Positions 14,073-58,260 of a DNA stretch of 64,000 nt are shown here, piece after piece. Source of the DNA: Candidatus Daviesbacteria bacterium (GTDB lineage Bacteria > Patescibacteriota > Microgenomatia > Daviesbacterales > UBA10151); the NCBI GenBank assembly GCA_030699125.1, contig JAUYKM010000009.1:6358-70357 (forward strand), written 5' to 3'. Position numbers and translations under genes: made by a program. Within the stretch, counting starts at the first letter, position 1, and each line of letters begins with the position of its first letter. The notes under the pieces were generated by a model that worked only from the letters and a program-made list of their open reading frames with translations, ran no database searches and had not been told where the DNA came from.

Positions 14073-14146
14073 TGCGGGATCGTCTAATGGTAGGACAACA
14101 GGCTCTGAACCTGTTTATCTTGGTCCGAATCCAAGTCCCGCAGCCA
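14073..14146 (+). tRNA. tRNA-Gln (anticodon CUG)
   Basis: Folded by hand. Acceptor TGCGGGA/TCCCGCA with U1-A72, D-stem GTCT/GGAC, anticodon stem ACAGG/CCTGT, loop CTCTGAA, T-stem CTTGG/CCAAG, discriminator G and an encoded CCA. Confidence 0.85.
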
Positions 14147-19269: not shown

Positions 19270-20022
19270 ATGTCGTTAGTCTTAACTGAGTTTGAACACT
19301 CTCGAGTTATTCTTCCTGTTATTCATCCTCAATCAGTGGATCATGCGGCTGAAAATATAGAAGTTGCACAAAAATCTGGCAGTGATGGTATATTTTTATT
19401 TTGTGGGAATGGTAGTACGGAGCAGTCACTGGAAGATTTTTTGGCCGTATATGCAAAGATCCACAGGCAATATCCAGGTTATTTTATAGGTGTTAATTTA
19501 CTTGATTGGCCAGTAAGATGGAACGATCAAAATCCAGCGTCAAGTTTGCCTGCTTTGAGTGATTTTTTCAGTAGGCTACTCTATTTAAGGGTACCAGCCG
19601 TTTTCGTTGAAAATTCTAAATTTATAGAAAATAGTATAGAACAACCCTATATAGAGGTGATAAATCAAGCTCGTCAATACTCAGGCGTCCTGTTGTTTGG
19701 AGGAGTTGCTTTCCATGACCCAGGAACTCATGGATATAATCTTGCTTCAGTTAATGCAAAACATTCAATGGATGTAGTAATGACAGGTGGAGTTGAGAGA
19801 GGAACTCCGCCGACTCTGAGTAAGATGTATTCTCTAAGCGAACCGCTTGGTGATCATCCACTGGGGATATCAAGCGGCATATCACCTCTTAATATCTTAG
19901 ATTATCCAATGGCTAAATTTTTTTCGGCTAATACTCATATAGTAACTCCCGGTACAGAAGATCTTAATCCACACTTGCTGGGTACGATGGTGGGATTAGT
20001 TCGAAAATATCTGGATCGTTAA
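19270..20022 (+). CDS. Hypothetical TIM-barrel-like protein, weak BtpA/SgcQ-family resemblance
   Basis: Only loose pattern similarity (ILPVIH, GSDGIF, YFIGVNLL). Sits under the operator-containing promoter. Confidence 0.3.
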   Translation: MSLVLTEFEHSRVILPVIHPQSVDHAAENIEVAQKSGSDGIFLFCGNGSTEQSLEDFLAVYAKIHRQYPGYFIGVNLLDWPVRWNDQNPASSLPALSDFFSRLLYLRVPAVFVENSKFIENSIEQPYIEVINQARQYSGVLLFGGVAFHDPGTHGYNLASVNAKHSMDVVMTGGVERGTPPTLSKMYSLSEPLGDHPLGISSGISPLNILDYPMAKFFSANTHIVTPGTEDLNPHLLGTMVGLVRKYLDR

Positions 20023-20039
20023 TTTAACCAAGCTACGCC

Positions 20040-20678
20040 TTATTTTTTACTTGGAAAAAACGCTACAATAAGTCTTAGTAAAACCACAAGCGCCGTAAAA
20101 CCAAAGGTAATTTGTCCAACTATTCTTTTGATAACTAAAACTCCATTTTGTGATTCAACTAAGTAAAAATGTAAAACTGCCAAAATTAATGCCAAATATG
20201 CTGTTGATTGGATAATCTTCCAAATCTTTGGACTTAAAGAATTCAAAGCCAGCTTGTTAGAGGTTAAAGTAACTGCCAAAAGTATTACTAAAGAAGCCAG
20301 TCCAGCCAGTAAGCCAAAATATTTGGGACTGGTTGGATCAAATAATTTGGCTAAGTCATAATTAACATAGAAAATATAAATTAGTATGGTATGAGCTAGG
20401 GCAATAAAAAAGCTTAAGATCCCCCAAAATTTGCGGTTGGCTTTTAAAGCATTTAGGGCAGGAAAAAATCTGCTGGCAGGCCCAATAAGTAATGTGAGAG
20501 ACAAAAGAGCAATCGCCAAAAGTCCAGTGGTTTTCACCATTTCCTTTGGATTGAACTGGCCAAAGTTATAAAATTGGAAATACAGCCAGAAAAGAAGAAA
20601 CGGTACCCCGAAATCAATTAATCTTTGAGTCATATTTTTATCTTCAGAGTAATTATAAGGATGAGCTTTATTTTTCAT
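20040..20678 (-). CDS. Ferric-reductase-like (MsrQ/YedZ-type) heme-binding membrane protein
   Basis: Six hydrophobic helices with conserved His in TM (LAHTILIY, LAVLHFYLV). The track ORF extends to 20738, where it would overlap the csoR promoter, so the internal start at 20678 is preferred. Confidence 0.45.
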   Translation of the reverse strand: MKNKAHPYNYSEDKNMTQRLIDFGVPFLLFWLYFQFYNFGQFNPKEMVKTTGLLAIALLSLTLLIGPASRFFPALNALKANRKFWGILSFFIALAHTILIYIFYVNYDLAKLFDPTSPKYFGLLAGLASLVILLAVTLTSNKLALNSLSPKIWKIIQSTAYLALILAVLHFYLVESQNGVLVIKRIVGQITFGFTALVVLLRLIVAFFPSKK

Positions 20679-20731
20679 TTTTATAACTAATCTCAAGGTA
20701 ACATATATGGGCGAATTAATCAAAAACATGC

Positions 20732-20760
20732 TTGACATATCCCCTATGGGGGGATATAAT
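20732..20760 (+). promoter_or_regulatory. Sigma70 promoter (TTGACA-17-TATAAT) with an embedded palindrome ATATCCCCTATGGGGGGATAT, a CsoR operator candidate, leaderless csoR
   Basis: Perfect hexamers. The GC palindrome sits in the spacer. csoR ATG at 20770 is about 9 nt after the -10. Confidence 0.6.
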
Positions 20761-20769
20761 GTATTGGTT

Positions 20770-21039
20770 ATGTATAGACCAAAAAATACACAAGAACGAA
20801 TTACTCATCGGTTACAGATTGCCCAGGGACATCTTAAAAAGGTTCTTAATATGGTGGAAAACGGGGAATATTGTATTGATGTAATCCATCAATCCCAGGC
20901 AGTCCAGGCAGCTTTGAAGGAGGCAGATTCTTTGGTTTTGGAAAACCACCTGAAAGGTTGTGTGGTTGACCATATTAAAAAAGGTGAATCAGATGCGTCT
21001 ATTGCAGAAATCATGAATGTTTTTAAGAAAAACAAATAA
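20770..21039 (+). CDS. csoR: CsoR/RcnR-family metal-sensing transcriptional repressor
   Basis: RLQIAQGHLKKVLNMVENGEYCIDVIHQSQAVQAALKEA...HLKGCV matches the DUF156 CsoR helix bundle, with the Cys-His-Cys ligand positions present. Confidence 0.75.
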   Translation: MYRPKNTQERITHRLQIAQGHLKKVLNMVENGEYCIDVIHQSQAVQAALKEADSLVLENHLKGCVVDHIKKGESDASIAEIMNVFKKNK

Positions 21040-21042
21040 TTT

Positions 21043-21543
21043 ATGAGTGACAAAAAAATTATTATTGGCTTTGTGGTCTTAACCCTTTTAATACTGGGGG
21101 GTGGAGTTTATGTGTTAAGCGCCATCTCTACCAGTCCTACTCAAGTTACTTCCTCACAAAACGCCAAAGTATCTTTAGATGAAAAGACTTATGATTGGGG
21201 TGAAATTCCCTATAGTGGTCCGGATGCCACCAAAACATTTATTATTAAAAATACCGGCACTGATGTATTGAAACTTACCAATGTTAAAACTTCCTGTGCC
21301 TGTACTAATGCCAGAGTCACTATTGATGGCGAGGTGAGTCCCAGCTTTGATATGCATACCACCTCTTCCTGGGTAGGTGAAGTTCCTCCAGGTAAAGAGG
21401 CGCAACTGACTGTTATTTTTGACCAGGATTTTCATGGACCCACCGGAGTGGGAGCGGTAGAGCGTTTGATATCAATTGAGACTAATGATGCAGCCAACCC
21501 AAAATTGGAATTTTTATTGAAAGGAACGGTAGTTAAACAATGA
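21043..21543 (+). CDS. DUF1573-like membrane-anchored protein with a CxC motif
   Basis: N-terminal TM and a beta-rich domain with TSCACTNA. Confidence 0.5.
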   Translation: MSDKKIIIGFVVLTLLILGGGVYVLSAISTSPTQVTSSQNAKVSLDEKTYDWGEIPYSGPDATKTFIIKNTGTDVLKLTNVKTSCACTNARVTIDGEVSPSFDMHTTSSWVGEVPPGKEAQLTVIFDQDFHGPTGVGAVERLISIETNDAANPKLEFLLKGTVVKQ

Positions 21544-22472
21544 AGACAAAGAAGATAAAAGGGATTCTATCTAAAGCCGTGCCTTTGTGGATGGTGTTAC
21601 TGGTAGTTTTAAATTCCACCCTGGTGATGGGTGTAGCTCAATATTATCTGATTAAACAGCAACTTCAGAAAGATATCAAAGAACTTTCTAAGAGTCTAGA
21701 TCCTGCTCAAATGGCGGCTGCATTAAAGCAGGAAGTTTTACCCCAGAAAGGTTATATGACTTCTTTAAAATGGAAGGATTTGGGTAAACAATTGGTGGAG
21801 GCCGGGGCAATTGACAAACAAAAGTATGAACAAATCTTTACCTATCAATCAGATGGGGCAGATCATATGAAATATATGGATGGATCTTGGGATGAGAATA
21901 TCATAATCAACGAGGCAAATGGCCGTTTTTTAGTTAATACTTTTTGGGCCTTGGGGTTGGTTAACAAATCCAAGGTGCTGGATGAGGGACCAATGAGGCA
22001 ACAGGGTATGGATACTGCCAATTTAGCCTCCACTGCCGGCTGGACTTTAGGCTCTAAGGGAGCCATGGAGCTTTACTCCTCAGTCTCCATTATTCCCTTG
22101 ACTGATGAACAGCAGGATTTAGTTAAAAGGATTGCCGAAAACGTTTTCCGTCCTTGTTGCGGCAATTCCACTTACTTTCCCGATTGCAATCACGGCATGG
22201 CAGCTTTAGGTTATATTGAACTGGCAGTTTCAAGCGAGCTTTCGGAAAATCAAATTTATAAAGATCTTTTAGCATTTAATTCCTTTTGGTTTCCGCAAAA
22301 TTATGTGGATATGGCTGTTTATTTTGACAAGCAAGGGACTAAATGGAAAGATGTTGATCCAAAACTGGCTTTGTCCTCTGCTTATTCATCATCTCAAGGC
22401 GCGCAAAGAATAAAACAATCCGTTCAATCTGTTCCCGGGGTTGGTGGAAGCACAGGAGGTTGTGGAACATAA
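21540..22472 (+). CDS. Membrane-anchored Cys-rich hypothetical protein
   Basis: N-terminal TM. CCGNSTYFPDCNHG cluster and a C-terminal GGSTGGCGT tail. Overlapping start and stop with its neighbours. Confidence 0.45.
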   Translation: MKTKKIKGILSKAVPLWMVLLVVLNSTLVMGVAQYYLIKQQLQKDIKELSKSLDPAQMAAALKQEVLPQKGYMTSLKWKDLGKQLVEAGAIDKQKYEQIFTYQSDGADHMKYMDGSWDENIIINEANGRFLVNTFWALGLVNKSKVLDEGPMRQQGMDTANLASTAGWTLGSKGAMELYSSVSIIPLTDEQQDLVKRIAENVFRPCCGNSTYFPDCNHGMAALGYIELAVSSELSENQIYKDLLAFNSFWFPQNYVDMAVYFDKQGTKWKDVDPKLALSSAYSSSQGAQRIKQSVQSVPGVGGSTGGCGT

Positions 22473-23309
22473 ATGGAAAATATCTTTTTTCAAACCTCGC
22501 TGATTGCCGCATTTGTGGCAGGGATGGTAGCCTTATTTGCCCCCTGTTGTATTACCTTTTTATTACCCGCGTATCTTGGCAGCGTTTTTAAGGAAAAAGA
22601 AAAAGTGATTTTAATGACTTTAGTTTTCGGTGCGGGAATTTTTGTCACACTTATGCCGGCAGTTTTAGGAGTGGCTTTGATCTCTAAAGCGCTTTTCCGC
22701 TACCATGATTTTATTTATATTCTGGGTGGGGTAGTTATGATTGGAGTTGCCGTAACCACTTTTTTGGGTATAAAGCTGCCAATGCCAAATCTGCCCGGGA
22801 CAAATATCGGGAGCAGGACAGATGTTTTGTCAATTTTTATATTAGGGATTTTTTCCGGTATCACCAGCGCCTGTTGCGCTCCGGTTTTGATCGGGATTTT
22901 AACTTTGACTTTTCTCTCGCCCAGTTTTTTTGGGGCCATTTTGATAGGAGGAATGTATGTTTTAGGTATGGTAATACCGCTTCTGATTATCTCCATTTTC
23001 CTGTCCGGAAAGATGTCAAAAATGGCTCTTTTAAGGAAACCGTTTGCTGATTTAAATTTTTTTGGAAAAACTTATGTAGTGGTAGTAAGTAATCTTGTGG
23101 CCTCAATAGTATTTTTAGTCACAGGTTTGGCGGCCCTGGGGTTGACAGTTTCGGGCAGGCTTTCTGCTGAAAATATGGATATATTCACCAAAACAATTAC
23201 AAACACATTAAATAATGTAAATGGTATTTTTGGCACAAATCCTCTGCTTAATGTTTTGTTCCTGATTACAGTAATCGCTCTTATTTATTGGGCTGCCAAA
23301 AAGCTGTAA
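22473..23309 (+). CDS. DsbD/CcdA-like polytopic thiol-disulfide membrane protein
   Basis: Two intramembrane Cys pairs (FAPCCITF and SACCAPV) across about 8 TM segments. Confidence 0.45.
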   Translation: MENIFFQTSLIAAFVAGMVALFAPCCITFLLPAYLGSVFKEKEKVILMTLVFGAGIFVTLMPAVLGVALISKALFRYHDFIYILGGVVMIGVAVTTFLGIKLPMPNLPGTNIGSRTDVLSIFILGIFSGITSACCAPVLIGILTLTFLSPSFFGAILIGGMYVLGMVIPLLIISIFLSGKMSKMALLRKPFADLNFFGKTYVVVVSNLVASIVFLVTGLAALGLTVSGRLSAENMDIFTKTITNTLNNVNGIFGTNPLLNVLFLITVIALIYWAAKKL

Positions 23310-23333
23310 GATTAAGTTAAGGGGGTGATAAAA

Positions 23334-23480
23334 ATGATGGGTTATGGAAACTGGGGATATGGCTATAGTGGAATGATGGGTGCAGGTTTTGGGATTTTAG
23401 CAACAGTTTTTTGGCTGGTGATTTTAATTGACCTGATTCTTTTGGGCGTTTGGCTTTGGAAGCAGATTCAGAAGAAATAA
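23334..23480 (+). CDS. 48-aa Gly/Trp/Tyr-rich single-TM mini-protein
   Basis: SD GGGGGTGA lies 6 nt upstream. MMGYGNWGYGYSGMMGAGFG followed by one TM. Not in the ORF track. Confidence 0.3.
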   Translation: MMGYGNWGYGYSGMMGAGFGILATVFWLVILIDLILLGVWLWKQIQKK

Positions 23481-23490
23481 TTAAGGTTTT

Positions 23491-23850
23491 ATGAGTATAG
23501 ATAAAGTTTTAGTTATTATTTTTGGGCTTATCGGAGTAATTTTTACCTATTGGTTCTTTTTGATGAAAAAAGAAAAGGAGGTGGAAGCAGTGGGTGAAGT
23601 GGATATTAAAGTAAGCGGTGGATATTCGCCGGAGGTAATCTCCGTACCTTTGGGTAAAACTACCAGGATAAATTTTTTAAGGACTGATCCAACTGACTGT
23701 TTATCAGAGGTGGTTTTGGGTGATTTTAAAATTAAAAGGCAGTTGCCTTTAAATGAGAAAGTAACAGTAGAAATTACCCCGCAAAAGGCGGGGGCGTTTG
23801 GATATTCATGCGCTATGAACATGTATCATGGCAAGATAATTGTTAAATAA
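23491..23850 (+). CDS. Membrane-anchored cupredoxin-like small protein
   Basis: N-terminal TM. C-terminal motif [16 protein letters not shown], which also recurs at the C-terminus of the 26162..27181 ORF. Confidence 0.5.
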
Positions 23851-23867
23851 GCAGAGCTTGCGATGCT

Positions 23868-26165
23868 TTGCATCTAAATATGGCAGAAATAAAGAAAACA
23901 TTTCCCATAAAGGGTATGTACTGTGCATCATGTGTACGGGTTTTGGAGAAATCCTTAAGTAGAGTTGAGGGTATTTCTAATTGTGTAGTAAATCTGACAA
24001 CAGAGACAGCAAGTGTTACATATGATCCAAAAAAAGTGACAGATAATGATTTGGTATCTGCTGTGGCGAATGTTGGCTACAAAGCAGGGTTGGAGAGTGA
24101 GTTAAAAACAGAAGATCAGCAAAAAATAGAGAAGGAAAAAGAACTAAAAGATTTACGAAATAAAGTTATTATCAGTTTATTTTTGGGGGCATTAATTCTT
24201 TGGGGAAGCTTTCCGGGTCTTATGAATATTGCCCCACTTTTTTTAATAAACTCATGGGTACAACTGCTTTTAGCGATACCGGTTCAATTTTGGGCAGGCT
24301 GGGAATTTTACAGGGCTACAATTCCTGCCCTGCGACACAGAACTGCCAATATGGACACACTGGTGGCCATAGGTACTACCGTTGCTTTTTCCTATTCCGC
24401 TGTCGTGACTATTTTTCCTCAACTGGTGGAAAGTATTGGAGTAAAACCAGAGCCCTACTTTGATGTTTCCACTATTATTATCGGATTAATTTTACTAGGA
24501 AGATATTTTGAAGCCAAAGCTAAAGCAGGTACTTCAGAGGCTATTAAAAAGTTAATAGGTCTGCAGGCTAAAACTGCCAGGGTGGTAAGGAATGGCTCGG
24601 AAGTAGATATCCCGATAGATCAGGTAGTGATTGGAGATACTATCAGGGTCAGGCCAGGTGAAAAAATTTCGGTTGACGGAGAAATTTTAGAGGGTCAGTC
24701 ATCTATTGATGAGTCCATGGTAACAGGAGAAAGTATCCCGGTTGATAAGGTTAAAGGCGATTTGGTAATTGGTGCCACTATCAACAAAACAGGAACCTTT
24801 TTATATAAAGCCACCAAAGTGGGAGCAGATACAATGCTTTCACAAATTATTAAATTGGTACAAGAGGCTCAAGCCAGCAAAGCCCCGATACAAAGATTGG
24901 CTGATTTAATTTCTTCATATTTTGTACCGGTAGTTTTAATTTTGGCCATTGCTACATTTGTAGTTTGGTATGTAATTGGTCCTGCCCCTTCATTTTTGTA
25001 TGGTTTGCTTAATATGGTGGCTGTTTTAATAATTGCCTGTCCTTGTGCCATGGGCTTGGCAACTCCAACAGCTATTATGGTGGGTACAGGAATTGGGGCG
25101 AACAAAGGAATATTGATTAAGGATGCTCAAAGTTTGGAAACTGCTCATAAAATAAACACTGTTATTTTTGATAAAACAGGGACATTAACTAAGGGAAAGC
25201 CGGAGGTGACCGACGTTGTTCCATTCGTCATTGCGAGGAGGAACGCGACGAAGCAATCTTCCAAATCAAGATTGCCACGCGAACTAAAGTTCGCTCGCAA
25301 TGATGTTTTGGTATTAGCAGCATCTTTGGAAAAGGGATCAGAACATTCTTTAGCAGAGGCAATTGTTAATAAAGCCGAGCAAGAAGCACTTAACTTCAGC
25401 AAAGTCGAAGCATTTAAAGCCATTCCAGGGCATGGGGTAGAAGGTATTGTTGATGGGAGAAAAGTGGTTCTGGGAAATAGAAAGTTGCTGGAAAAGAATG
25501 ATGTTGACTTTACTCCGATTATTCGAATAATTGAACAACTGGAAAATGAAGGCAAGACAGTGATGATGTTGACCGTGGATGGGAAATTAGCAGGCCTTAT
25601 TGCTGTGGCTGATACTATTAAAGAGACTGCCAAAGAAGGAGTGGAAGCGCTCTATAAAAAAGGGATAGAGGTAGTTATGATTACCGGAGACAACCAGAGA
25701 ACTGCCAATGCTATTGCTAAAAAGCTGGGTATAAAAAGAGTTTTGGCAGAAGTTTTGCCTGATCAAAAAGAGGCGGAAGTAAAAAAGATTCAGACAGAAG
25801 GAAAGAAAGTAGCTATGGTGGGAGATGGAATAAATGATGCTCCGGCTTTGGCTGCTGCAGATGTTGGGATTGCCATGGGTACTGGAACTGATGTGGCCAT
25901 AGAGTCGGCAGGAATTACCTTGATAAATAAAGATTTAACATCTGTGGTATCAGCAATAGAGCTTTCCAAAAAAACCATGAGAACAATAAAACTAAACCTT
26001 TTTTGGGCTTTTGGTTATAATATTATATTAATACCGGTTGCTATGGGAGCGCTCTATCCATTTTTCCATATACTTTTAAATCCAATCTTTGCTTCAGTTG
26101 CTATGGCATCCAGTTCTATATCTGTAGTTTCAAATTCACTGCTTTTAAAAAGGGTTAAACTATGA
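23868..26165 (+). CDS. copA: Copper-translocating P1B-type ATPase
   Basis: N-terminal [16 protein letters not shown] motif [18 protein letters not shown] and [10 protein letters not shown]. Carries a 78-bp in-frame GC-rich palindromic insertion at 25227-25304. Confidence 0.9.
25227..25304 (+). repeat. Two inverted copies of palindromic mini-element family A inserted in frame in copA
   Basis: GTCATTGCGAGGAGGAACGCGACGAAGCAATC and, inverted, GATTGCCACGCGAACTAAAGTTCGCTCGCAATGAT. Matches 55996-56028 and 56173-56198. Confidence 0.7.
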
Positions 26166-27181
26166 TTAATTTGTGGCTCATATTTATAACCGGTTTAACT
26201 GTTGGGGGCTTAACTTGTCTGGCAGTGCAGGGAGGACTTTTGGCCTCAATTATTGCGGCCAGGGAAGAAGATGATATCGAACGCGGTAACAGGCGTAAAC
26301 ACACACTCTGGGCAACAATTGCCTTTCTAGTAACTAAGTTGATTGTTTATACTTTTTTAGGTTTTATCCTGGGGGCTTTTGGAGGGGCATTAAATATTTC
26401 TCCCAAAGTCCAGATTGCCATGCAATTTTTAGCAGGACTATATATGGCTTTCATTGCGCTAGATTTGTTAAAAGTCCACCCTATCTTTAGATACGTAGTC
26501 ATCCAGCCCCCCAGATTTTTAACCAGGATAGTAAGGAATCAATCCAGGAGTAAGGATCTTTTTGCCCCGGCCGCTTTAGGTGCTATGACAATTTTTATTC
26601 CTTGTGGTACAACTTTGGCAATGGAGGCTTTGGCAATCTCATCCGGTAATGCAATTTTGGGTGCAGCAGTTATGTTTTTCTTTGTTTTGGGCACTATACC
26701 TGTATTTTTTGGGGTGGGTTTTTTAACCACAATATTGGGTGATAATTTTCAGGGCAGATTTTTAAAAATTGCAGGGCTGACTGTACTTTATTTAGGTGTT
26801 ATCTCAGCAAATGGCGCTTTAGTTGCAGCAGGATCACCTGTTAGCTTGCCATCTATAACAATTGACCTAAGTGGCAATGGTAGATATTCAGCGCAGAACC
26901 AGATTGATATTTCCGTTGCACAAAACCCCCAAATTACTATTACATCTTCCGGCTACAGCCCAAACTATATCAGAGTAAGGCAAGGTAAAACAGTCAACTT
27001 AACGCTTAAAAGTATCAATGCTTTCAGCTGTGCTTTAGCTTTTAGGATTCCCTCTTTGGGCATCAGTAAGAATCTGCAGCCAAATGATGTGCAGCAAATC
27101 AGCTTTGTTCCCACTCAACCAGGCCAAATCCCATTTAGCTGCTCTATGGGGATGTATCGGGGGGTGATTGAGGTAATATGA
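26162..27181 (+). CDS. Polytopic membrane protein fused to a C-terminal cupredoxin-like domain
   Basis: About 6 TM with a conserved Cys in TM1 ([11 protein letters not shown]). The C-terminal soluble domain ends in [12 protein letters not shown]. Confidence 0.45.
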
Positions 27182-27396
27182 GGAAGAGAAAATTCAAAAT
27201 TACGGATATGCACTGTAGCTCTTGTGCTTTAACCATAGATTTGGATTTGGAAGATTTGGAGGGAGTGAAATTTGCCAGGACCAGTTATGCAAAAGGAGAA
27301 ACTGAAATAGAATTTGATTCTGAAAAAATTACTGATCAAGTTATTTCAGAAACTATCAAAAAATCAGGCTATTCTGCAATTCCTCTTGAAACTTAA
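27178..27396 (+). CDS. copZ: Heavy-metal-associated (HMA) copper chaperone
   Basis: 72 aa with a ferredoxin-like HMA fold. Metal-binding loop MHCSSC. Confidence 0.75.
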   Translation: MRKRKFKITDMHCSSCALTIDLDLEDLEGVKFARTSYAKGETEIEFDSEKITDQVISETIKKSGYSAIPLET

Positions 27397-27424
27397 TAGT
27401 AAAATAGCCGATACTTAAATAGTT

Positions 27425-28414
27425 ATGTCTTTTGATTTAATTTCCATTGGTGACACAGTAGTTGATACATTTATTCCATTAGAGGATGCCAAAGTTTTAA
27501 GTGATGATGGACAGCGGATGTTGGCAATGCGTTATGGGGATAAAATTCCAGTAGGACCCTCCACATCTTTGGTAGCAGGAAATGCTGCTAATAATGCAGT
27601 TGGAGGGGCCAGATTAAATCTTAAAACTGCCATCTATACTCATGTGGGTGATAAAGATGATGAAGAATATGATCAAAGAATTGTTTTAAAATTTAAACAA
27701 GAAAAGATCGAAACCAAATATATTACCCATGATAAAAATTTACCTTCTAATCATCACATAGTTTTAAATTTTAAAGGGGAGAGAACCATTTTAATTTATC
27801 ATCAACCTTGGCAATACTCTCTGCCGGATTTTGATTCGGCCAAAAGAGTTTATTTTACTTCCCTAGGTCCAACATTTACTAAATCAAATATTGTAGGGGA
27901 GCTAATAAATTACTTGGAAAGAACTGGAGCCAAACTTCACTACAATCCGGGTACGTTTCAAATTAAAGCAGTGGTAAAAAAATATCCCAGGCTTCTTTTT
28001 TTAACAGAAGTATTTATTGTAAATGCGGAGGAGGCAAAAATAATTTTAGGATTTGATGAATCTGCCAAAATTGATATTAAAAAATTACTAAAAGGGTTGT
28101 TGGGATTAGGTCCCAAAAGAGTAGTTATTACAGATGGGGGAGAAGGGTCATATGGGTATGAAGGAGAACAGTATTATCATTTGGAAGTTTTTCCAGCTAA
28201 ACTTTTAGAAATGACAGGGGCAGGGGACGCTTATGCCACAGGAGTTTTAGCTGGATTTTTTTATGGAAAAGATTTAGTTGAGGCGATGAGATGGGGAGCA
28301 GCCAATGGAGCCTCAGTGGTGGAACAAATCGGTCCCCAGGCAGGATTGTTAACCTATGAGGGTATGCAGGAAAAACTAAAAGAAAATTCTCAAATTGTGG
28401 CAAAAGAAATTTAG
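27425..28414 (+). CDS. PfkB-family carbohydrate/nucleoside kinase
   Basis: GG dipeptide region and a C-terminal GAGDAYATGVLAG anion-hole motif. Confidence 0.75.
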   Translation: MSFDLISIGDTVVDTFIPLEDAKVLSDDGQRMLAMRYGDKIPVGPSTSLVAGNAANNAVGGARLNLKTAIYTHVGDKDDEEYDQRIVLKFKQEKIETKYITHDKNLPSNHHIVLNFKGERTILIYHQPWQYSLPDFDSAKRVYFTSLGPTFTKSNIVGELINYLERTGAKLHYNPGTFQIKAVVKKYPRLLFLTEVFIVNAEEAKIILGFDESAKIDIKKLLKGLLGLGPKRVVITDGGEGSYGYEGEQYYHLEVFPAKLLEMTGAGDAYATGVLAGFFYGKDLVEAMRWGAANGASVVEQIGPQAGLLTYEGMQEKLKENSQIVAKEI

Positions 28415-29115
28415 CTTGAAGGTAGAGGTATAAAAGATAATTCATTTTGAACATCAATTCCTGAATCATTTCCCGAGAAAAATCTTCTTACTACATAAGA
28501 AAAGTTTGATGCCAGTCTTTTTATTCCATCAGGAATACGGGTAGGACAGAAAGCAGATACTTTAGCCATATCCAACAGACTTGTTTGACTGTCAATGCTA
28601 CTATGTGAGGGCGAGATCATTCGCATCATTCTATCCATTACATCTCTTTTTTTCAAATAATCCATATAATCAGGATTATATTGGGTGATTGTGCTCAGAA
28701 CTGATGTCGAATAATTACCAAGTTTAGATTCATTAATTCGTATATCAACTTTTTTAGCAATACCGGTTTGTTCAAATGTTTTAAGATCATAAATCTCACT
28801 TTGTTTCCAATCTGCCACTTTTACCATTACAGCCGGCATCCTTTCCTTGAGACCTGAGGTATATGCAGTAATTGGGCTACTAATGAAGAGCTCATCATTT
28901 ATAATATCTCGTGCAGTTAACACTTCAGTTTGATTTGGCGGGTTACATATTATAAAAATCTCCATTACCCCAGTTCTACTTATAAGTTGAGGTTTTTGAG
29001 CCTCCCGTTCAGCATGAGCCCAGCCTAGTCCAACCCCACCTAAAAGTAAAAGCGCTGCGCCTGTTTCTACAAATTTTCTTACTGGGATTCTCTCCATAGA
29101 ACTATTATATAACAT
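28411..29115 (-). CDS. Hypothetical exported protein
   Basis: N-terminal hydrophobic signal (AALLLLGGVGLGWAHA). Confidence 0.4.
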   Translation of the reverse strand: MLYNSSMERIPVRKFVETGAALLLLGGVGLGWAHAEREAQKPQLISRTGVMEIFIICNPPNQTEVLTARDIINDELFISSPITAYTSGLKERMPAVMVKVADWKQSEIYDLKTFEQTGIAKKVDIRINESKLGNYSTSVLSTITQYNPDYMDYLKKRDVMDRMMRMISPSHSSIDSQTSLLDMAKVSAFCPTRIPDGIKRLASNFSYVVRRFFSGNDSGIDVQNELSFIPLPSS

Positions 29116-58186: not shown

Positions 58187-58260
58187 GGCGCCATCGTCTA
58201 GTGGTCCAGGACATCAGGTTCTCATCCTGAAAATCGCGGGTTCAAGTCCCGCTGGCGCCG
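58187..58260 (+). tRNA. tRNA-Glu (anticodon CUC)
   Basis: Folded by hand. Acceptor GGCGCCA/TGGCGCC, GTCTAGTGGTCCAGGAC D-arm typical of tRNA-Glu, anticodon stem TCAGG/CCTGA, loop TTCTCAT, T-stem GCGGG/CCCGC. No encoded CCA. Confidence 0.85.

Follow-up and report, generated by a model that had tools for sequence, protein, structure and literature searches.

The subject of this report is a nine-gene copper-homeostasis operon in a 64,000-nucleotide stretch of DNA (the window) from the metagenome-assembled genome of Candidatus Daviesbacteria bacterium, an uncultured groundwater organism and a member of the candidate phyla radiation (CPR). The operon combines a CsoR-type repressor and a copper efflux core, consisting of a CupA-type chaperone, a CopA ATPase and a CopZ chaperone, with a conserved accessory set of cysteine-rich proteins that accompanies copper pumps in related genomes. 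We denote the genes g1 to g9 in the order in which they lie: csoR (g1), g2, g3, g4, g5, cupA (g6), copA (g7), g8 and copZ (g9). The products of g3, g4 and g8 are 100% identical to NCBI entries assigned to Daviesbacteria. We propose, at roughly even odds (a probability of about 0.5), that the products of this operon form a CsoR-derepressed efflux core together with an outward-facing layer of protein thiols that would be kept reduced through two proteins of the DsbD superfamily, g4 and g8.

The original prediction, made from the letters of the DNA without database searches, described an expanded copper operon in which copper handling is mixed with thiol-disulfide membrane modules and twin cupredoxin-like domains. 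This description is borne out by the family matches, which place both membrane modules in the DsbD superfamily and relate the cupredoxin domains to each other. The gene list, motifs and coordinates given there are likewise correct: all nine co-directional open reading frames (ORFs) are found on the + strand between 20770 and 27396, where they had been placed. What had been overlooked is the novel content of the locus, namely, the triad g2-g3-g4 and a cupredoxin domain in g8 that is predicted to face outward. The sensor, the pump and the chaperones belong to known families. For the accessory set, that is, a CcdA protein with four cysteines, a family with a Cys4/His site, its DUF1573 partner and an outward-facing CupA domain on a DsbD_2 protein, we found no published description; literature searches combining DUF1573 with copper, CcdA with CsoR/CopA, DsbD_2 with cupredoxin, CupA with DsbD, and Patescibacteria with CsoR returned no account of the cluster.

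A copper efflux core under predicted CsoR control

The csoR product matches PF02583 (E = 1.1e-22) and the structures 4M1P (7e-15) and 2HH7 (7.5e-13) of the Protein Data Bank (PDB). Its YCID and NHLKGC motifs align with YCVD and NHLETC of 2HH7, and the Cys-His-Cys ligands are matched. In Mycobacterium tuberculosis numbering, the Cu(I)-binding triad of CsoR is C36/H61/C65; among homologues of the Daviesbacteria protein, the ligands are conserved in 49 of 49 (C35), 48 of 49 (H60) and 41 of 49 (C64) sequences.

The promoter in front of csoR is the single site within positions 20000-28600 that matches the sigma-70 consensus at 12 of 12 positions. Only 10 nt separate the end of its -10 box from the ATG at 20770, a spacing that favours this start of csoR and implies a near-leaderless message. 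The promoter spacer holds a perfect inverted repeat that we predict to be a CsoR-type operator; a GC-tract palindrome overlapping the promoter is the known architecture of CsoR operators. A longer csoR ORF, opening at 20707, would contain both the promoter and the operator and was rejected for this reason.

The nine genes are probably read as one transcript. Such a transcript is plausible given one perfect promoter with its operator, the tight packing of the genes and the lack of a convincing + strand terminator inside the cluster. The predicted 4-nt overlaps are present as ATGA at three junctions (g2/g3, copA/g8 and g8/copZ), g3 and g4 abut with no gap, and the remaining gaps measure 3-29 nt; copZ is translationally coupled to g8. 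Terminator-like + strand sites at 22880 and 27808 were discounted, being weak and within the number expected from shuffled sequence.

The cupredoxin-like protein g6 matches Cupredoxin_1 (5.5e-21), CupA of Streptococcus pneumoniae (PDB 2MRY/4F2E; 1.3e-22) and the N-terminal domain of pneumococcal CopA (4F2F; 8e-9). The corresponding domain of g8 matches Cupredoxin_1/PF13473 (4e-13), 4F2F (8e-4) and CupA (1.1e-3). The two domains are 31% identical over 75 amino acids (E = 6e-12), including the C-terminal signature (Y/F)SC(A/S)M(N/G)MY(H/R)G(K/V)I that they had been predicted to share. The signature had also been taken to mark an uncharacterised Cys/Met/His metal site, and in this respect the prediction has to be revised. 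In CupA of S. pneumoniae, Cu(I) is bound in a binuclear cluster made up of a bis-thiolate site S1 (C74, C111) and a Cys/Met2 site S2 (C74, M113, M115). All four ligands align with invariant residues of the g6 and g8 domains; the site is the solved Cu(I) site of CupA and the CopA N-terminal domain (Cys, Cys, Met, Met). The histidine of the motif is replaced by arginine in g8 and is no ligand in CupA. Among homologues, the ligands of g6 are found in 30 of 30 (C70, C107, M109) and 29 of 30 (M111) sequences, and those of g8 (C290, C327, M329, M331) in 24 of 24.

The topologies of g2, g3, g6 and g8 were derived by manual hydropathy and positive-inside analysis. In g6, an N-terminal transmembrane (TM) segment is followed by KKEK, which suggests a cytoplasmic location for the cupredoxin domain. 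By its sequence, g6 is a Cu(I) chaperone of the CupA type, with a predicted membrane anchor. According to a review, CupA is confined to a few streptococci; here, cupA is common in the CPR group Microgenomates and was found in 31 of 83 CPR loci.

CopA scores 631.7 with TIGR01511 (cut-off 397) and combines an E1-E2 ATPase with one HMA domain (PF00403, 9e-16); CPC in TM helix 4, DKTGT, an HMA domain with CxxC, and MASSS are all present. The ORF opens at TTG 23868; translation may instead begin 12 nt further on, at the first ATG in frame. A cupredoxin-type N-terminal domain was found neither in this CopA nor in the CPC-type ATPases of the related loci described below: the domain is HMA here and in 37 of 37 of them. 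CopZ matches HMA (1.7e-10) as well as CopZ models.

Related loci and linkage to copper ATPases

A genome scan with the g3 alignment identified 80 loci (designated by L numbers), nearly all from Patescibacteria, with a few from Chloroflexi. In 58 of the 80, g3 has both g2 and g4 beside it, arranged as g2-g3-g4 or g2-g4-g3, and csoR is adjacent in 37 of these 58 full-triad loci. At 61 of these 80 loci, a copper ATPase is encoded no more than 10 kb away, and the same holds for 36 of the 42 with at least 6 kb of sequence on both sides; a rough estimate, for a genome of ~1 Mb with one or two pumps, puts the chance expectation at a few percent. The triad-linked ATPases are of three kinds, with CPC and an HMA domain, with CPD, or with CPH and an N-terminal CPKCGM motif. 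Of the CPD and CPH kinds, one representative each was scored with TIGR01511, and each came out above the cut-off. At L015, L027 and L034, csoR and the triad occur with no pump nearby.

A palindrome of the form AT[CA]CCC-N-GGG[GT]AT lies about 8-40 nt 5' of the first cluster gene in ~30 related loci. At L019, L024, L061 and L082, it stands directly 5' of the DUF1573 gene, with csoR downstream of the triad; the accessory genes are thus themselves members of the predicted CsoR regulon, independently of csoR as first gene. At L013, g5 is followed directly by a homologue of the kinase-like gene that follows copZ in the window, an arrangement which suggests that the cupA-copA-g8-copZ block is separable and behaves as an insertable module.

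These data bear on the annotation of the two DsbD-superfamily genes. Taken at face value, the NCBI product names, CcdA for g4 and TauE/SafE-type (sulfite) exporter for g8, would describe a cytochrome c biogenesis protein and a sulfite exporter that are neighbours of cop genes by chance. We regard this as very improbable, given that gene order, 4-nt overlaps and a common promoter and operator tie both genes to csoR, copA and copZ, that the linkage is kept across dozens of genomes, that g8 carries a CupA-type Cu(I) site, and that cytochrome c maturation genes are not among the recurrent neighbours.

Several further features of the related loci were recorded. CPH-type ATPases stand beside the triad at L020, L026, L028, L033, L040, L058 and others, and CPD-type ATPases at L046, L062, L065, L069 and L074; in both kinds, which come from other CPR lineages, an N-terminal GxCPKCGM replaces the HMA domain. 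An ArsR-family regulator with a YHS domain occurs in the neighbourhood of 11 loci. A DUF5676 protein with two TM segments (PF18926, 4e-13) is encoded directly 3' of the CcdA-like gene in 42 loci (for example, L015 11957-12229); the window has no such gene, and we found no literature on DUF5676. Between the triad and cupA, 12 loci (for example, L009 5168-5602) encode a membrane protein of 144 aa that contains the motif ACCAHH and matches no Pfam or NCBIfam family. At L004-L013, L017, L019, L031 and others, the proteins are 65-85% identical to those of the Daviesbacteria genes and the gene order is the same; these records, metagenome-assembled genomes of the binchicken set, are titled 'uncultured Gammaproteobacteria', and the titles look mislabelled.

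The triad g2-g3-g4 and the mini-protein g5

The g2 protein matches DUF1573 (5e-14), as anticipated, and the OS_HP2 (seleno)protein family (2e-14). The cysteines of its CxC motif (C85, C87) are present in 69 of 69 homologues and H131 in 67 of 69. Selenoprotein forms of DUF1573 carry UGC, with selenocysteine, at the position of this CxC, which marks it as a reactive site. An N-terminal TM segment is preceded by KK, and g2 is predicted to be a membrane-anchored, outward-facing Ig-like protein.

The g3 family is large, with 4049 homologues and, at 50% identity, 565 clusters. Neither the full protein nor the 90-aa segment with the cysteine motif, searched as single sequences and as profiles, matched Pfam, NCBIfam or the PDB beyond noise. 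The family is characterised by the motif RPCCxNxTxFPDCNHGMA and a C-terminal GGGCG tail; among sequences that share 27-56% identity with g3 of the window, W136, C206, C207, N209, D215, C216 and the tail cysteine C308 are invariant, and H218 is retained in at least 90%. The protein is predicted to be membrane-anchored and to face outward. Two structural models were compared with the PDB using Foldseek, with no significant match; for the second (AlphaFold2, built from a diverse alignment; predicted local distance difference test score 91.6), there was none at E < 0.78.

The thiol-oxidoreductase domain of the cytochrome c maturation protein CcmH (2KW0) ranks sixth in the Foldseek comparison (E = 2.8, probability 0.47; not significant). 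Over three helices, residues ~185-265 of g3 superimpose on 2KW0 with a target-normalised TM-score of 0.62 and a root-mean-square deviation of 2.7 Å in 67 columns. The two proteins are alike in the register P-x-C-x-N-x-[ST]...D-x-N...M, and hhalign, run against a CcmH sequence entered by hand, aligned them in this register with P = 0.018 and a probability of 2.6%. In contrast to CcmH, g3 is three times larger and its cysteines are arranged as CC...C.H plus the tail cysteine; it does not match the Pfam CcmH family. With neither the Foldseek nor the hhalign result significant, g3 was not assigned to CcmH, and the likeness is a weak hint only.

Some relatives of g3 are parts of larger proteins. 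One is fused to a rhodanese domain (P0128), and one member of alignment A3 to DsbC_N (1e-9). The long relatives P0138, P0140, P0152 and P0203 carry an N-terminal multi-TM domain with a GxxxxACP[VA]CG motif, for which no family match was found.

The g4 protein on its own matches nothing in Pfam, the PDB or NCBIfam. A profile of 18 homologues, however, matches Thermus thermophilus CcdA (5VKV) with E = 3.3e-13, and 11 of the 18 members match PF02683, which makes g4 a protein of the CcdA family. The predicted CcdA/DsbD-like protein with two intramembrane cysteine pairs is thus upheld as to both family and pairs; DsbD_2, a search for which had been suggested, is the family of g8 and not of g4, and no similarity is detectable between g4 and the membrane domain of g8. 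In the 5VKV alignment, the first cysteine of each pair, in FAPCC (TM1) and ACCAPVL (TM4), falls on a canonical CcdA cysteine, and the second is added. The pairs are conserved in 63 of 64 (C25/C26) and 64 of 64 (C134/C135) homologues, down to 32% identity, and H78 is found in all 64.

Domain searches of the nine ORFs revealed no thioredoxin-fold gene in the operon. At L002, and only there, the g4 homologue adjoins a thioredoxin-fold gene of the AhpC/Redoxin type. DsbA-like (Thioredoxin_4) genes are found in 27 loci and VKOR genes in 11, a few kb from the triad (for example, L043 5657-6400 and L010 4984-5421, respectively); the DsbA-like genes are not contiguous with it. Together, DsbA-like and VKOR proteins are an oxidative-folding pair near a putative reductive module, and neither is encoded in the window.

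The recurrence of these genes is among the observations that would fit a role of g2-g3-g4 without any contact with copper: the triad could be an extracytoplasmic disulfide reductase or isomerase that repairs copper-misoxidised surface proteins and is merely co-regulated with efflux. Copper tolerance of Escherichia coli, which needs DsbC/DsbD, provides a parallel. The homology of g4 to CcdA, the DsbC_N and rhodanese fusions of g3 relatives and the weak local similarity of g3 to CcmH point the same way. Nevertheless, we consider this role improbable, as the invariant residues (Cys4/His in one case, CxC/His in the other), together with the Gly-Cys tails and the Met-rich g5, resemble the ligand sets of soft metals, and the linkage to three types of copper ATPase and to CsoR operators is tighter than general repair predicts.

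The mini-protein g5 probably starts at the ATG at 23334, which is preceded by a Shine-Dalgarno sequence 6 nt 5' and gives 48 aa. Its N-terminus is rich in Met, Gly and aromatic residues; it also has one TM segment and ends in a KK tail. A jackhmmer search recovered 20 homologues, which follow the pattern MMGxGxxxMM...WLWKQIQKK and occupy the corresponding place in related loci; by this measure, g5 is a real conserved gene.

A DsbD_2 membrane protein fused to a CupA-type domain

In g8, a DsbD_2 domain (PF13386; 5e-31, 108.6 bits against a cut-off of 24.9) with six TM helices, at about 26180-26800, precedes the cupredoxin domain, at about 26921-27169. Two TM cysteines, C19 and C148, and H106 are present in 24 of 24 homologues. 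The loops at residues ~34-47, 104-132 and 192-202 contain ~14 Lys/Arg, and the other short loops contain one (counted by eye). From this alternation, we predict that both ends of the six-helix TM domain lie outside and, accordingly, that the CupA-like domain faces outward.

In the relatives encoded at L016, L046, L066 and L039, an HMA domain stands at the N-terminus, and a single additional TM helix links it to the DsbD_2 core. A TM segment inserted between a domain of cytoplasmic type and the core lends independent support to the predicted topology of g8. The proteins at L016, L046 and L066 have one or two Cup domains after the core and, where there are two, a Gly/Cys-rich linker between them; the fusion at L039 ends in a domain with the same signature, CSMGM. 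The full arrangement at L016 (10919-12724) and L066 (3468-5306) is HMA, TM helix, DsbD_2, CupA-like domain, linker GGGNCGGGGCGGCGGGG and a second CupA-like domain, and the linker resembles the GGGCG tail of g3.

Such associations raise the main alternative to electron transfer, unlikely in our view, in which a thiophilic metal rather than electrons would pass through g4 and through the DsbD_2 domain of g8. Cu(I) would then be handed by ligand exchange from CopZ/HMA or CupA to the intramembrane cysteines and on to the g8 cupredoxin domain, g2 and g3, forming an ATP-independent export route or relay parallel to CopA or, if reversed, an uptake route like MerP/MerT. In the related loci, copZ follows g8 in 23 of 26 cases and HMA is fused to g8 in the other three, a Rosetta-stone link to a metal donor. 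Both CC pairs of g4 are invariant, whereas canonical CcdA has a single cysteine per site; g8 is named by NCBI as an exporter; and the LysE transporter superfamily, to which the DsbD families are assigned, has metal-ion transporters among its members. Yet g4 is demonstrably a relative of CcdA, one g4 homologue adjoins a Redoxin gene, and in the NCBIfam scan g4 was matched by no MerT, MerC or MerF model, the MerTP and MerP models touching only the HMA parts of copA and copZ. Moreover, import under a copper-released repressor would be counter-productive, and we know of no characterised DsbD_TM or DsbD_2 metal transporter.

A model of the operon

In the model that we prefer, an efflux core with a reduced thiol layer outside, Cu(I)-bound CsoR would leave its operator and all nine genes would be released. 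The efflux core is of conventional make-up, comprising CupA with its known Cys2/Met2 site and predicted membrane tether, HMA-type CopZ and CPC-type CopA. On the outer face of the membrane, g2, g3 with its flexible GGGCG tail, the CupA-like domain of g8 and possibly the Met-rich g5 would make up a thiol layer that binds Cu(I) leaving CopA or coming from outside, and/or protects and repairs surface thiols against copper-catalysed oxidation. Electrons transferred across the membrane would keep the cysteines of the layer reduced, with the four-cysteine g4 serving g2 and g3, and the DsbD_2 domain of g8 serving its own fused cupredoxin domain. DsbD and the Scs copper-tolerance system follow the same logic of passing electrons across the membrane; here, the clients would be non-thioredoxin proteins. 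The efflux core and the CsoR-operated promoter can be read from the sequence itself, and the thiol layer is what we infer beyond them; more generally, everything past family assignment is inferred from sequence and synteny.

In favour of transmembrane electron transfer, we count the alignment of g4 with 5VKV, the Redoxin neighbour at L002, the DsbC_N and rhodanese fusions of g3 relatives, the weak likeness of g3 to CcmH and the UGC of DUF1573 selenoproteins. Several considerations weigh against the model. To our knowledge, every characterised CcdA/DsbD pathway has a thioredoxin-fold client, and the operon encodes none. Adjacent cysteines within TM helices typify Hg(II) transporters rather than electron carriers, and the fusion of g8 relatives to a cytoplasmic, metal-binding HMA domain is more in keeping with a relay of metal than of electrons. 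The topology was worked out by hand from hydropathy and the placing of positive charges, and the resemblance of g3 to CcmH is not significant (see above).

We also considered a more far-reaching proposition, which we hold only tentatively and judge somewhat doubtful. In this version, g3 would represent a new, structurally unprecedented family of extracytoplasmic Cys4/His proteins that, with the four-cysteine g4 and the CxC protein g2, forms a CsoR-controlled machine dedicated to copper on the exterior of the membrane in monoderm CPR bacteria and in some Chloroflexi, and the DsbD_2-CupA fusion would be the first cupredoxin Cu(I) chaperone site wired directly to a transmembrane conduit for electrons or metal.

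Comparison with known copper and thiol systems

The closest parallel to g6 is found in the cop operon of S. pneumoniae (copY-cupA-copA), with which it shares a predicted N-terminal TM anchor, the Cys/Cys/Met/Met ligands and the position just 5' of copA; the ligand set of pneumococcal CupA and the CopA N-terminal domain recurs in the C-terminal domain of g8. The pneumococcal regulator is CopY, whereas here it is CsoR, and pneumococcal CopA has a cupredoxin domain where the Daviesbacteria protein has a ferredoxin-like HMA domain, so that the cupredoxin-cupredoxin pairing is absent. CopZ is additionally present here, as is a second cupredoxin domain, placed on a DsbD_2 membrane protein and predicted to face outward.

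With the csoR-copZ-copA operons of Bacillus, Listeria and Mycobacterium, the Daviesbacteria operon shares a Cys-His-Cys CsoR, a GC-tract palindrome over the promoter, an HMA-type CopZ and a CPC-type CopA. It differs from them in having six extra genes (g2-g6 and g8), csoR in first place and a near-leaderless message.

The CcdA/DsbD and Scs (ScsB/ScsC) systems likewise pair a DsbD-superfamily membrane protein with extracytoplasmic cysteine proteins in the context of copper tolerance. Here, however, the candidate clients are a DUF1573 Ig-like protein, a protein with no recognised fold and a cupredoxin domain, with no thioredoxin fold among them, and g4 has four intramembrane cysteines, not two. 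As far as tested, the operon proteins include no homologue of ScsB or ScsC. The mercury proteins MerT/MerP, MerC and MerF resemble the operon in their vicinal TM cysteine pairs and a small HMA or cysteine-rich partner, but no sequence relationship was detected, and the regulator and the pumps here are copper-specific.

Gene layout and neighbouring features

The coordinates of the operon and of the neighbouring features are collected in Table 1. The Ferric_reduct/MsrQ-like gene, which encodes a haem-b membrane protein, is divergent from the csoR promoter region. Homologues occur upstream of csoR in six close loci, and this could be synteny or an operon-linked cupric/ferric reductase. The gene 28 nt 3' of copZ looks like a pfkB-type sugar kinase by eye, with homologues in 13 loci. 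The two tRNA genes are the sole Rfam matches in the 64-kb window.

Table 1. Features of the copper operon and its surroundings (positions in the window).
Feature	Position	Strand	Basis
Promoter TTGACA-17-TATAAT	20732-20760	+	sigma-70 match 12/12
CsoR-type operator (predicted), ATATCCCC-N5-GGGGATAT	20737-20757		perfect inverted repeat within promoter spacer
g1 csoR, Cu(I)-sensing repressor	20770-21039	+	PF02583
g2, DUF1573 protein with SCAC	21043-21543	+	DUF1573 match
g3, Cys-cluster protein, 310 aa, with RPCCGNSTYFPDCNHG	21540-22472	+	ORF
g4, membrane protein, CC at residues 25-26 and 134-135	22473-23309	+	CcdA-family profile
g5, mini-protein, 48 aa	23334-23480 (ORF 23325-23480)	+	Shine-Dalgarno AAGGGGGTG
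g6 cupA, CupA-type cupredoxin protein	23491-23850	+	Cupredoxin_1, PDB 2MRY/4F2E
g7 copA, P1B-1 Cu(I) ATPase	23868-26165	+	TIGR01511
g8, DsbD_2-cupredoxin fusion	26162-27181	+	PF13386 + PF13473
g9 copZ, HMA metallochaperone (MHCSSC)	27178-27396	+	HMA; CopZ models
Ferric_reduct/MsrQ-like protein	20040-20738	-	PF01794 8e-11; MsrQ model 4e-14
pfkB-type sugar kinase-like ORF	27425-28414	+	by eye
tRNA gene	14073-14143	+	Rfam
tRNA gene	58187-58260	+	Rfam

Implications

How copper is expelled from the cytoplasm is well understood; what becomes of Cu(I) at the outer surface of bacteria with a single membrane is much less so. The operon described here, with its ~60 relatives near copper ATPases, points to a conserved accessory set that is co-regulated with the pump. 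This set includes the g3 family, which is widespread (at least 565 clusters at 50% identity) and unannotated, and has an invariant Cys4/His site and no detectable solved relative.

The analysis also extends CupA-type chaperones far beyond the streptococci and breaks the picture in which a cupredoxin chaperone pairs with a cupredoxin domain of the ATPase. For pneumococcal CupA, the partner that re-reduces the site is stated to be unknown. The natural fusion of DsbD_2 with a CupA-type domain suggests a route by which such sites could be re-reduced or loaded and, if the proposed wiring is true, would indicate what sort of partner returns them to the reduced state. For CPR bacteria, with their very small genomes, this would be a surprisingly elaborate copper system.

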